Assembly (NCBI RefSeq): GCF_988242995.1
Contig: NZ_OZ547043.1
Reading direction: 5' to 3' (one strand)
DNA length: 64,000 nt
In this document: positions 57,363-59,782 of the stretch, in pieces
Layout: each line of letters begins with the position of its first letter
How positions within the stretch are numbered: position 1 is the stretch's first letter
Made by a program: the position numbers and the translations under genes
The notes under the pieces: model-generated
The model's database searches: none
What the model saw: the letters and a program-made list of their open reading frames with translations, nothing else
What the model was told of the DNA's origin: nothing

Positions 57363-57650
57363 ATGAAAGTAAAAAATTCTGGCTTTACTGCCAGCGGTAA
57401 AACTCGTCCTAAATTCATGCACGGCGATATTTACCGCGATAAATACGGCAGCACGGTAATGATTAAGGGCGTGAGTGAACGACGCATTACCTACCGCCGT
57501 GAAGGATACAAATATGACTGCGTGATGCCTGTTTATCAGTTCCAGCGTGATTTTACGCTGGTGGATCATCGTGAAACCGTAAATCAGAACCGTGCAGCAA
57601 GATACATCCGCAAAATCCGCGAAATGATGGTTACTGGGGGCAAGAAATGA
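57363..57650 (+). CDS. hypothetical protein
   Basis: 95-aa basic ORF whose stop overlaps the primase start (ATGA at 57647-57650). Confidence 0.45.
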   Translation: MKVKNSGFTASGKTRPKFMHGDIYRDKYGSTVMIKGVSERRITYRREGYKYDCVMPVYQFQRDFTLVDHRETVNQNRAARYIRKIREMMVTGGKK

Positions 57651-59782
57651 AACGCGCACCGAACTTAAAGCACCAGCCAGCCGACAAAATGACGGAGGTT
57701 ATCATTTTTGCGGGTAGTGATGCGTGGAGCCATGCGAAAGAGTGGCAGGAATGGGCAGGTAAGCATATTGCCGCCGACAATGTGCCGCCTGTCGTTCTGT
57801 CAGATGAACACCTGAAAGATATTACCGGTTATCAGATTATTGATGATAGCCGTCAGTGTGTGCGTGTTTACCGCGCAGGGCACATCACTGAACGTAGCCT
57901 TACACAGATCGTCACATTGCTGGCTGTGGCTGGCGTGAAGACCGTATACGAATATGCGGGAATAACTGACACCAGCCCGGCGGATTTATCCGACCAGTTG
58001 CCTCGCCTCAAAGACGAATACGAGCGCGGGGAAAGTCTGGTGTTGCCCTTAAAGAAAAAAATCACAGAAAGCCAGGGCGATGATGAATTAAAACCCCGCG
58101 TTGAAAGTCGCGCCGATGGTGTTTTCTGGGTAACGCCCAAAGTTGACAAACAGTCAGGCGAAATTATCCGGCCTGAGACGTGGTTATGTTCCCCGCTTGA
58201 ACTACTGGGAACGGGAACAATCGGTAAAGAGCATTACCGCGTGATGCGCTGGAAAAAACCGGCAAACCATGAATCCATCACAATGGCGATCCCGTGTGGT
58301 GGCATTGGCGACCGTGACGGCTGGCGGTTGCTTAAAGATCACGGCCTGAACGTGACAACAAACGGCAAATACAGGGCTATCCTGGCTGACTGGATGCAGT
58401 TAAGCGGAAACCATGAGGAATGGCAGTTAAGCACAACAACGGGGTGGCATTTTGGCGCGTACATCATGCCGGACGGTTCAGTCATTGGTGAGTCTGAAAA
58501 ACCGATCCTGTTTACCGGAAAAACGGCAGCCGTTAATGGTTATTCCGTAGCAGGAACGGCGGAGGGCTGGCGCGATACCGTGGCGCGACTGGCTGGTGGT
58601 AATCCGTCCATGATGCTGGGTGTGGCGGTATCGTTATCAGCACCATTAATCGGGCTGGTGGGCGCTGACGGCTTCGGGGTACATCTTTTCGAACAATCAT
58701 CAGCAGGGAAAACCACCACACAGAACATAGCATCAAGTTTATGGGGAGAGCCGGACGCGCAACGGCTGACCTGGTACGGAACGGCGTTAGGTATCGCCAA
58801 CGAGGCAGAGGCACACAACGACGGGCTGTTACCCCTGGATGAAATAGGCCAGGCCGGAAACGCACGGGAGGTGTCCACGTCGGCTTATACGCTGTTTAAC
58901 GGTTCGGGGAAATTACAGGGGGCGAAGGACGGCGGCAACAGGGAGATCAAACACTGGCGCACGGTGGCAATCAGCACCGGAGAAATGGACGTTGAGACAT
59001 TCCTCAAAACGGAGGGGATAAAAGTCAAAGCGGGGCAGCTTGTCCGCCTGCTTAACGTGCCGATGGAGAAGTCTACGCAGTATCACGAATACAGCACAGG
59101 AAAGGCGCACGCAGACGCGTTAAAGGCTGCCTGGACAGAAAACCACGGGGCAGCGGGTCGTGAATGGGTTAAATGGCTGGCAGCCCACCAGCAGGAGGCT
59201 AAGGACACGGTAAGGGCGTGCCGTGAACGGTGGCGCAACCTAATTCCGGAGAGCTACGGCGAACAGGTTCATCGCGTAGGGGAACGATTCGCCATACTGG
59301 AGGCCGCGCTTGTGCTGTCCGGTCATGTTACGGGCTGGAATGTTCAGACGTGCTGTGATGCCATTCAGCATAACTTTAATGCCTGGGTGAAGGAGTTCGG
59401 CACGGGTAACAAGGAACACAGGCAGATTATTGAACAGGCAGAGGCATTTCTTACTGCCTACGGCATGAGCAGGTTTGCGCCTGTCAATTATGACCCTGCA
59501 AGCCTGCCGATTTCAGAACTGTACGGCTACAGGGAAAGCGAGGGGCGTTACGGTGAGCCTGTTTTGTTTTACGTCCTGCCGGAGCCATTTAAATCGCATG
59601 TGGCGAAGGGATTTAACAAGGATGCCGTAGCAAGAGCCCTTCACGAAGCCGGAATGCTGAAAAAGCCAGCCAGCGGGGAAGGATGGCAAATCAGAACACC
59701 ACGTCTTAAGCACATGAAGGGGGCACGACTAAGGGTGTACGGCCTTTTACTTGCACAGGATCATGATGATGAAGGTGGTTAA
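57647..59782 (+). CDS. primase/replicase-like P-loop NTPase (P4-alpha-like / DUF927-type)
   Basis: 711-aa ORF; Walker A-like motif FEQSSAGKTT and a downstream acidic motif (LLPLDEIG); placed downstream of int-alpA and directly before an iteron cluster as in satellite replication modules. Confidence 0.65.
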   Translation: MKRAPNLKHQPADKMTEVIIFAGSDAWSHAKEWQEWAGKHIAADNVPPVVLSDEHLKDITGYQIIDDSRQCVRVYRAGHITERSLTQIVTLLAVAGVKTVYEYAGITDTSPADLSDQLPRLKDEYERGESLVLPLKKKITESQGDDELKPRVESRADGVFWVTPKVDKQSGEIIRPETWLCSPLELLGTGTIGKEHYRVMRWKKPANHESITMAIPCGGIGDRDGWRLLKDHGLNVTTNGKYRAILADWMQLSGNHEEWQLSTTTGWHFGAYIMPDGSVIGESEKPILFTGKTAAVNGYSVAGTAEGWRDTVARLAGGNPSMMLGVAVSLSAPLIGLVGADGFGVHLFEQSSAGKTTTQNIASSLWGEPDAQRLTWYGTALGIANEAEAHNDGLLPLDEIGQAGNAREVSTSAYTLFNGSGKLQGAKDGGNREIKHWRTVAISTGEMDVETFLKTEGIKVKAGQLVRLLNVPMEKSTQYHEYSTGKAHADALKAAWTENHGAAGREWVKWLAAHQQEAKDTVRACRERWRNLIPESYGEQVHRVGERFAILEAALVLSGHVTGWNVQTCCDAIQHNFNAWVKEFGTGNKEHRQIIEQAEAFLTAYGMSRFAPVNYDPASLPISELYGYRESEGRYGEPVLFYVLPEPFKSHVAKGFNKDAVARALHEAGMLKKPASGEGWQIRTPRLKHMKGARLRVYGLLLAQDHDDEGG

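Follow-up and report, generated by a model that had tools for sequence, protein, structure and literature searches.

A DUF927-family Rep as the probable origin-binding helicase of a PICI-type satellite in Escherichia coli proL

What is the function of a 711-residue open reading frame that lies between the integrase-alpA end of a small Escherichia coli island and a cluster of short repeats, and does its product prime DNA synthesis? The locus sits in a window of 64,000 nucleotides, the whole stretch of DNA that was analysed (NCBI RefSeq assembly GCF_988242995.1, contig NZ_OZ547043.1). The first-pass annotation had tentatively proposed a primase/replicase-like P-loop protein that initiates island replication, in the position of pri-rep in phage-inducible chromosomal islands (PICIs). 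Our analysis supports the P-loop replication protein, the initiator role and the pri-rep position; the primase half of the family assignment finds no support. The gene, here rep, very probably encodes the replicative helicase that binds the origin of a small phage-satellite island, as judged for both origin binding and helicase activity from its relatives. Because the family is already known and Rep lacks a working primase part, the finding is of use as annotation and comes as no surprise.

The rep gene and its island

The 711-aa frame was recovered intact with an ATG start, which, together with thousands of full-length homologues, plentiful across Enterobacteriaceae, places the gene far beyond chance. 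The start codon of rep shares bases with the stop of the DUF4222 gene before it (ATGA), and the DUF4222-rep arrangement recurs in the island EcCICFT073. In the near-identical chromosome of E. coli LH13-b, the same CDS carries the RefSeq label 'DUF927 domain-containing protein'. The placement of rep between int-alpA and the first iteron cluster was likewise borne out, with iterons downstream at 59807-59943 and the following features around it:

54393-54417, no strand: attL core, 3' end of tRNA-Pro(GGG)
54622-55866, + strand: tyrosine integrase gene (int)
56130-56321, + strand: AlpA-family regulator gene
56725-56801 and 56826-56913, + strand: isrK-like RNA and C4 antisense RNA, RNA immunity elements of P4 type that precede the rep operon
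57363-57650, + strand: DUF4222 gene, with apparent translational coupling to rep
57647-59782, + strand: rep, gene for the predicted 711-aa DUF927 initiator helicase
60019-60444, + strand: island single-strand DNA-binding protein gene (ssb), part of the replication module
63340-63364, no strand: attR core, imperfect repeat of the tRNA 3' end

The island spans ~8.95 kb in the 3' end of the tRNA-Pro gene proL, in the order int, alpA, C4/isrK RNAs, Icd-like, DUF4222, rep, iterons, ssb, proQ/finO and perC. This is the layout of a Gram-negative PICI (GN-PICI): such islands are recognised by unidirectional int, alpA, rep and ori within ~9-15 kb at a specific att site, as found here in ~8.95 kb, and the context of int, alpA, ssb, perC and att sites in tRNA-Pro agrees. 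The att cores were set by comparison with the empty K-12 site, which places the core in the tRNA 3' end and so rules out a 39-nt repeat at 54521/63248 as the att site. We identified no capsid or terminase genes in the island, the sole morphogenesis-type gene being PmgG-like (phrog_1114). Additionally, its ash gene is a pseudogene and its proQ-like gene contains a nonsense codon. Taken together, these features suggest that the island may be partly degraded.

The DUF927 helicase core

DUF927, one of the Pfam families raised at first pass, matched Rep with 158.8 bits (gathering cut-off 22.6, 3e-46), aa 168-435 corresponding to profile positions 15-283 of 284. The Walker A-like motif FEQSSAGKTT, previously picked out by eye, also proved to be conserved. 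The core is predicted to be organised as follows:

58037-58093, + strand: predicted disordered linker, aa 131-149 (pLDDT <50 at residues 136-145)
58094-58546, + strand: beta-rich N-tier domain, aa 150-300, where the DUF927 match starts
58559-59086, + strand: AAA+ ATPase core, aa 305-480
58688-58717, + strand: Walker A region FEQSSAGKTT, aa 348-357, with G354 and K355 invariant
58838-58843, + strand: Walker B D398-E399
59045-59047, + strand: R467, invariant candidate arginine finger, aligned with an arginine in Cch and SaPIbov1 Rep
59099-59461, + strand: helical domain, aa 485-605

In an alignment of 77 homologues, G354, K355, S443, E446 and R467 never vary, and at least 90% of the sequences keep D398/E399. 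The Rep sequence matched the Rep of SaPIbov1 (PDB 8tch) at 8e-15 (phmmer), and a profile of the 77 homologues matched 8tch at E 1.1e-46 and the SCCmec protein Cch (5dgk) at E 1.7e-35, the latter alignment running through the C-terminal domain. The AF2 model of Rep (pLDDT 92.2) was matched by Foldseek to 5dgk at E 9e-24 (TM 0.77-0.79) and to 8tch at E 1e-22 (TM 0.69), both target-normalised over ~580 columns. The next fold matches, MCM, BrxL and ComM, came at E about 1e-5 and TM about 0.25. A literature search for a paper describing 8tch found none.

Judged by profile and model, Rep is over residues ~150-702 a member of the DUF927 self-loading initiator helicases. Rep has the same multi-domain fold as SaPIbov1 Rep and Cch, also DUF927 proteins, with N-tier, AAA+, helical and C-terminal domains in this order, and its Walker A, Walker B and R467, the candidate arginine finger, align with their equivalent residues. 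Identity to these proteins is about 16-17% in structural alignment. Rep differs from both in its Gram-negative host, in an origin of two sub-clusters, and in an extra 130-aa N-terminal module and disordered linker, which the two staphylococcal proteins lack.

Phage P4 alpha is likewise the replication protein of a satellite, encoded close to the origin that its C-terminal part binds. The comparison with alpha made at first pass stands for gene position and fails for helicase type: alpha joins a Toprim primase to a D5-type SF3 helicase, whereas Rep has an MCM-like DUF927 core and neither of those domains. P4 and the island share a C4 immunity RNA. In Pfam, the D5_N, DUF5906, Pox_D5 and Primase_Cterm models gave no match to Rep, and SaPI5 PriRep is a distant fold match to its model (E 9e-6, TM 0.22-0.36).

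The GN-PICI replicon tested experimentally is that of EcCICFT073 (PMC6092414). Its Pri-Rep (WP_000761835) occupies the same position and operon as Rep (Icd-like ... DUF4222, rep, ori, ssb, perC), and the N-terminal ~160 aa of the two proteins are homologous (40% identity, E 8e-27). In contrast, the helicase core of Pri-Rep matches D5_N, DUF5906 and Pox_D5 (SF3) and is unrelated to DUF927, and its origin is a single cluster of GGTAGAYA iterons instead of two sub-clusters with GGGACARGT.

Iterons, origin and the C-terminal domain

The predicted recognition domain and the two parts of the putative origin are as follows:

59474-59752, + strand: C-terminal domain (CTD), aa 610-702, putative iteron-recognition domain, swapped between relatives along with iteron type
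59807-59943, no strand: origin sub-cluster A, two inverted iterons (59807, 59816), an AT-rich spacer and four direct GGGACAAGT iterons (59882, 59893, 59914, 59935)
62100-62245, no strand: origin sub-cluster B, three inverted GGGACAAGT iterons (21-nt spacing), an AT-rich spacer, three tandem GGGACRGGT iterons and a conserved TTTTGTATATATATACG

All 11 matches to GGGACARGT in the 64-kb window fall within these two clusters (0.55 expected by chance), and the first begins 25 nt after the rep stop codon, much as SaPIs have an iteron origin directly downstream of the gene (PMC7581432). Published GN-PICI and SaPI origins consist of two iteron sets flanking an AT-rich stretch (PMC6092414, PMC7581432, PMC9371898). 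The layout of sub-cluster A, with its two inverted and four direct iterons around a spacer of ~57 nt (~59825-59881), agrees with what PMC6092414 describes. The origin is atypical in that sub-cluster B is displaced from A by 2.15 kb.

Origin binding by SaPI Reps and by Cch2 is a function of the C-terminal domain (PMC7581432, PMC9371898). Among Rep relatives, CTD class predicts iteron type at 11 loci, and this co-variation supports origin recognition by the Rep CTD, with the iterons just downstream of rep as its putative targets. In two relatives (P0014 and P0005), the core is 98% identical to that of Rep but the CTD only 33-34%, and the iteron is the unrelated TAACCCGCA. A third (P0101), 62% identical overall and 72% in the CTD, likewise uses GGGAYAAGT, and a fourth (P0002), with a CTD 100% identical to that of Rep, has the same iterons and layout. 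Furthermore, the loci L013 and L011 share one iteron and CTDs that are 95% identical despite differing N-terminal modules and island backgrounds. The correlation is not perfectly graded, since P0046 and P0121 have a common iteron with CTDs just 49% identical.

Replication model, alternatives and the N-terminal module

We consider it highly probable that Rep serves a GN PICI-type satellite as a self-loading, MCM-like AAA+ hexameric DUF927 helicase, with ATPase, helicase and iteron-binding activities predicted from its relatives. Upon induction, AlpA and the lifting of termination mediated by the C4 RNA would allow expression of the DUF4222-rep operon. The Rep CTD would bind the GGGACARGT iterons flanking the AT-rich spacer just downstream of rep, and Rep hexamers would assemble there, melt the spacer and unwind DNA using ATP, while the island SSB would coat the single strands. 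Lacking a primase active site, Rep would leave priming and synthesis to the host, or possibly to a helper phage.

Three other explanations were weighed against this one. Rep could be an active helicase that is loaded by another iteron-binding factor of the island or helper rather than an origin-recognising initiator. The DUF4222 gene, apparently coupled to rep in translation in DUF927-type and D5-type islands alike, and the capacity of sub-cluster B to sit far from rep would fit such a loader; we nevertheless judge it unlikely, given that iteron type tracks the Rep CTD even where, as in L013 and L011, N-terminal modules and island backgrounds differ, and that the SaPI and Cch2 precedents point to the same domain. 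Still less probably, Rep would play no part in replication and would be either an AAA+ protein of MCM type that acts in phage interference or defence, in the manner of BrxL, or a decaying remnant. Although BrxL and ComM are among the fold matches, and the ash pseudogene and proQ nonsense codon are signs of decay, these two and MCM score far below Cch and SaPIbov1 Rep in the fold comparison. A defence role was rejected because PADLOC gave no match, and both readings fit poorly with an intact frame, conservation of all catalytic motifs, adjoining cognate iterons, a neighbouring ssb gene and abundant full-length enterobacterial homologues.

The remaining alternative, a bifunctional primase-helicase whose N-terminal module is a divergent active primase making the island's replication primers, concerns the following region:

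57647-58036, + strand: N-terminal module, aa 1-130, an alpha/beta fold with slight likeness to Toprim, also present in EcCICFT073 Pri-Rep

Names speak for this alternative: N-terminal fragments of the Rep family are labelled 'DNA primase, partial' in NCBI records, and PHROG 1139 and 864 are labelled 'DNA primase'. So do the closest DUF927 relatives outside the family, primase-helicases with Zn-ribbon, Toprim and DUF927 domains (e.g. P0121, 919 aa). These are 60% identical to Rep over aa 146-709 and, like Rep, have a bipartite iteron origin directly downstream, but they carry a genuine DnaG/P4-alpha-type primase (Zn_Ribbon_Prim + Toprim_3, ~345 aa) where Rep has its 130-aa module. However, the match of Rep to PHROG 1139 spans just positions 284-887 and therefore lacks the primase part of the profile. 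Residues 1-130 match no Pfam family, and the primase, Toprim, zinc-ribbon, AEP and D5_N models gave no match even at E<=5 in 28 family members. A profile search of PDB sequences with the module returned nothing below E 0.1, and hhalign against the Toprim domains of the primase-fused relatives gave a probability of 0.1. These three results give no support for homology of the module to Toprim and leave a weak fold likeness to the DnaG type. Moreover, the module has no invariant acidic residue in the 28-sequence alignment, its invariants being only A4, P5, G23, A26, P48, L56 and G78, with E17 kept in at least 90% of members, whereas E75, D122, D159 and D162 are invariant in the Toprim domains of the primase-fused relatives. 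The sequence of aa 1-165 contains a single cysteine, so a zinc ribbon is absent. A primase activity of Rep is thus improbable.

We infer that the module is a non-catalytic add-on to the proposed helicase, perhaps a Toprim domain in degenerate form, that likely serves in protein interaction or assembly. When the module alone was the query of a word-indexed homologue search, truncated fragments made up most of the matches. A joint reading, which we offer tentatively and think rather doubtful, is that the module is a catalytically dead, Toprim-derived adaptor that recruits a replisome component and has been shuffled by GN-PICIs between DUF927 and D5/SF3 engines, and that the PICI origin consists of two separable Rep-binding units, A and B, workable kilobases apart. 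The recruited partner may then come from the host or helper-phage replisome, for instance DnaG or a phage primase, replacing island priming. Likewise, melting and loading may take place at A, and B may be bound by Rep and resemble a promoter, with TTTTGTATATATATA at its end. A sigma-70 consensus scan gave no promoter at sub-cluster B, with a hit count not above shuffles, so the promoter idea for B draws on its conserved position and TATA-rich tail only.

At the level of sequence, these results would give the 'DUF927 domain-containing protein' a specific function as the Rep helicase of a PICI-type satellite integrated at proL, and they map its putative cognate origin. The names 'pri' and 'DNA primase' in this lineage of GN-PICI replication proteins are backed by no primase active site, and this absence bears on models of satellite replication and its dependence on host or helper. 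Additionally, N-terminal module, core and CTD recombine independently in nature, and the iteron goes with the CTD; these natural domain swaps are ready specificity variants for experiments or PICI-based vector engineering.

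Family membership and structure of Rep

The gene that the first-pass annotation had tentatively described as a primase/replicase-like initiator encodes a member of the DUF927/Cch/SaPIbov1-Rep family within a replicon of the Gram-negative phage-inducible chromosomal island (GN-PICI) type, both already known kinds. Its open reading frame (57647-59782, plus strand, ATG start, 711 aa) and Walker A-like motif (FEQSSAGKTT, aa 348-357) were correctly described there, and the domain search proposed at the time matched aa 168-435 to the Pfam family DUF927 (E 3e-46). Among PDB sequences, a single-sequence search recovered 8tch, the SaPIbov1 replication initiator with helicase activity (8e-15), and 5dgk, the SCCmec Cch helicase (0.004); a 77-homologue profile gave 1.1e-46 and 1.7e-35, respectively, with the Cch alignment reaching through the C-terminal domain (CTD). 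Cch is a DUF927-containing relative of SaPIbov1 Rep, and SaPI Reps are self-loading helicases that recognise, through their CTD, iterons lying immediately 3' of rep (PMC7581432; PMC9371898). An AlphaFold2 model built from the 77-sequence alignment was confident (mean pLDDT 92.2) and comprises the following parts.

aa 1-130, N-terminal alpha/beta module
aa 131-149, disordered linker
aa 150-300, beta-rich N-tier
aa 305-480, AAA+ core
aa 485-605, helical domain
aa 610-702, C-terminal domain

In Foldseek comparisons with the PDB, this model matched Cch best (E 9e-24; target-normalised TM 0.77-0.79), then SaPIbov1 Rep (E 1e-22, TM 0.69), whereas SaPI5 PriRep, BrxL, MCM subunits and ComM were far weaker. 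G354, K355, S443, E446 and R467 are invariant in the alignment, D398/E399 are kept in at least 90% of aligned sequences, and the motif residues align with counterparts in both solved relatives. Defence-system models gave no match, and few relatives occur in genuine phage genomes, where 22 of 50,697 records contain one, most of them small and satellite-like.

The island carrying rep

The window is E. coli chromosome, and comparison with the empty K-12 site delimits an island of ~8.95 kb that contains rep and is inserted at the 3' end of tRNA-Pro(GGG). The island reads integrase, AlpA-like regulator, isrK-like and C4 RNAs, Icd-like gene, 61-aa ORF, DUF4222 gene and rep, followed by iterons, ssb, a ProQ/FinO-domain gene, perC, a second iteron cluster and a PmgG-like gene. 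The pri-rep-like position proposed earlier for rep stands, as this order matches the GN-PICI arrangement, in which int, alpA, rep and ori follow one another in one direction (PMC6092414; PMC10111431), and around the replicase the island runs parallel, gene for gene, to EcCICFT073.

54393-54417 and 63340-63364, att cores
55882-55927, near-perfect palindrome (AATTGGTTCCTAATTGGT / ACCAATTAGGAGCCAATT)
within 56725-56913, C4 antisense RNA (76 bits, exceeding the gathering score of 45)
within 56725-56913, isrK-like RNA (47 bits, just under the gathering score of 50)
57363-57650, DUF4222 gene
57647-59782, plus strand, rep
59807-59943, iteron sub-cluster A
62100-62245, iteron sub-cluster B
62526-63122, final gene, matching phrog_1114 (PmgG-like head morphogenesis, E 9e-60)

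The rep ATG, preceded by a G-rich ribosome-binding site, overlaps the DUF4222 stop codon (ATGA). Compared with strain LH13-b, whose copy of rep is labelled 'DUF927 domain-containing protein' in RefSeq, a 9.1-kb stretch around rep holds only two differences. The two RNAs sit in the ash pseudogene region, 5' of the rep operon, and as a pair correspond to the P4-type CI/seqA RNA immunity arrangement.

Situated in the AT-rich stretch between int and alpA, the palindrome may serve as a binding site for a regulator. A TGG-to-TAG change at window 60648-60650 introduces a nonsense codon into the ProQ/FinO-domain gene (60480-61016 in LH13-b); what remains is a fragment of 56 aa, and translation could restart at 60657, which would yield the 119-aa ProQ domain. 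No capsid, terminase or Rpp-like genes were recognised in the island, the PmgG-like gene being the only virion-related one, and the right end is variable among otherwise similar E. coli islands.

The N-terminal module and the primase question

Hudson and colleagues pooled DUF927 proteins in a PICI 'Primase' family (PMC10111431). The primase assignment entertained in the first-pass annotation was not supported, aa 1-130 having no Pfam match, zinc-ribbon cysteines or invariant acidic residues. Across 28 family members, this region drew no Pfam hit even with the threshold relaxed to E<=5, and PDB sequences gave no match; it contains one cysteine, and none of its invariant residues (A4, P5, G23, A26, P48, L56, G78) is acidic. 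The match to PHROG 1139 ('DNA primase') begins only at its position 284. In contrast, the nearest out-of-family relatives, which are P0121-like (60% identity over aa 146-709), carry Zn_Ribbon_Prim and Toprim_3 in a ~345-aa N-terminus absent from the target, and the Toprim domains of primase-fused relatives retain E75, G76, T79, D122, D159 and D162. Aligning the two profiles with hhalign revealed no similarity (probability 0.1). The domain model of aa 1-130 is confident (block pLDDT 85-97), in the order beta-alpha-beta-alpha-beta-alpha-beta-alpha. From these comparisons, we conclude that the module lacks a primase active site. It may represent the remnant of a Toprim domain that has degenerated, and metazoan Twinkle, which has an inactive primase domain, offers a comparison. 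Given that no second primase gene was found in the island (ORFs, Pfam, annotation), priming is presumably done by the host or helper phage.

The Pri-Rep of EcCICFT073 (L003), an experimentally validated GN-PICI replicase, begins with the same module (9242-9736; 40% identity over ~160 aa, E 8e-27), although its helicase core is D5_N/DUF5906/Pox_D5, unrelated to DUF927. One modest addition is a rep lineage that appears helicase-only, with a putatively non-catalytic N-terminal module spanning two helicase families.

This ~130-160-aa module (window 57647-58036), which has no Pfam family, is common to two unrelated PICI helicase types, and both its evolution and its recombination are independent of the helicase core. 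The 4-nt DUF4222/rep overlap (ATGA) also occurs in L003 (8946-9245), in DUF927-type and D5-type islands alike, and Rep, or its N-terminal module, may have a conserved partner in the DUF4222 protein. Within the DUF927 group, N-terminal module, core and CTD recombine independently of one another: identities to the query are 99/98/33% for the homologue P0005 and 65/97-99/100% for P0002. In P0300/P0301, P0325, P0281/P0305 and P0293, the first ~80-140 aa of the module are fused straight to an SSB, PerC, capsid-E or AAA_25 domain; such proteins probably arose from islands of this kind by deletion or recombination.

Origin iterons and the C-terminal domain

In the whole 64-kb window, 11 matches to GGGACARGT are present where 0.55 would be expected, and all fall in two clusters. 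Cluster A begins 25 nt past the rep stop codon; an AT-rich spacer of ~57 nt separates its two inverted iterons from four direct ones spaced 11/21/21 nt, the design of the published PICI origin. For a test of specificity, the DNA 3' of each rep gene was read at ten loci with relatives; origin architecture is common to them, while the iteron sequence varies.

CTD identity to the query and iteron of Rep homologues
P0002, 100%, GGGACAAGT
P0006, 95%, GGGACRACA
P0022, 86%, GGGACRACA
P0101, 72% (62% overall), GGGAYAAGT
P0121, 57%, TGAGACAAC
P0046, 48%, TGAGACAAC
P0057, 42%, TGAACCAAC
P0014 and P0005, 33-34% (N-tier and ATPase core 98%), TAACCCGCA
P0124, 29%, TTGGACAAT

The iteron tracks the CTD, since P0005 and P0014 share the CTD (95% identical) and an identical iteron despite different N-terminal modules. 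Such co-variation is good comparative support for origin reading by the CTD, as in SaPI Reps; a weak point is that P0046 and P0121 have one iteron though their CTDs are just 49% identical. The resulting iteron specificity map is new, and the origin layout is unusual, both modest additions.

The mechanism that we propose builds on four observations: Rep belongs to the DUF927 family, its motifs are intact, cognate iterons are present, and iteron type co-varies with the CTD. AlpA-dependent induction and lifting of C4-RNA control would allow expression of the DUF4222-rep operon, and the Rep CTD would bind the iterons flanking the AT-rich spacer. Hexamer assembly, spacer melting and self-loading would follow, with ATP-driven unwinding of 3'-5' polarity, as expected for MCM-like AAA+ helicases. 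Single-stranded DNA would be coated by the island SSB, and priming and copying would fall to the host replisome.

Placement of the two sub-clusters was compared between the window and L004, L005, L007, L008, L010 and L014. Most relatives have a compact bipartite origin, in which both sub-clusters fall no more than ~350 nt from the rep stop codon, whereas sub-cluster B lies 2.15 kb off in the window, beyond ssb-proQ-perC, and is likewise 2.15 kb distant in L014. L004, at the proL site as in the window, resembles a recombinant, because a proximal A+B pair with GGGACRACA iterons coexists with a distal B of window-type GGGACAAGT iterons. The CTD-sharing pair L011 and L013 have sub-cluster A only. 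Sub-cluster B always ends in three tandem iterons and a conserved TTTTGTATATATATA (window 62198-62245; L005 7432-7480; L007 7434-7480; L008 3137-3185); at several loci, the next gene's ribosome-binding site and start codon come within ~30-50 nt after it. This end resembles a promoter bound by Rep or a DNA-unwinding element; a simple sigma-70 scan made no call at sub-cluster B. In L009, which encodes the 39% identical Rep P0124, an inverted A-type cluster of 2 + 4 TGGACAA repeats (3446-3586) sits between int and an HTH regulator gene, 5' of rep, and a B-like cluster lies 3' of rep, a further case of origin halves lying apart.
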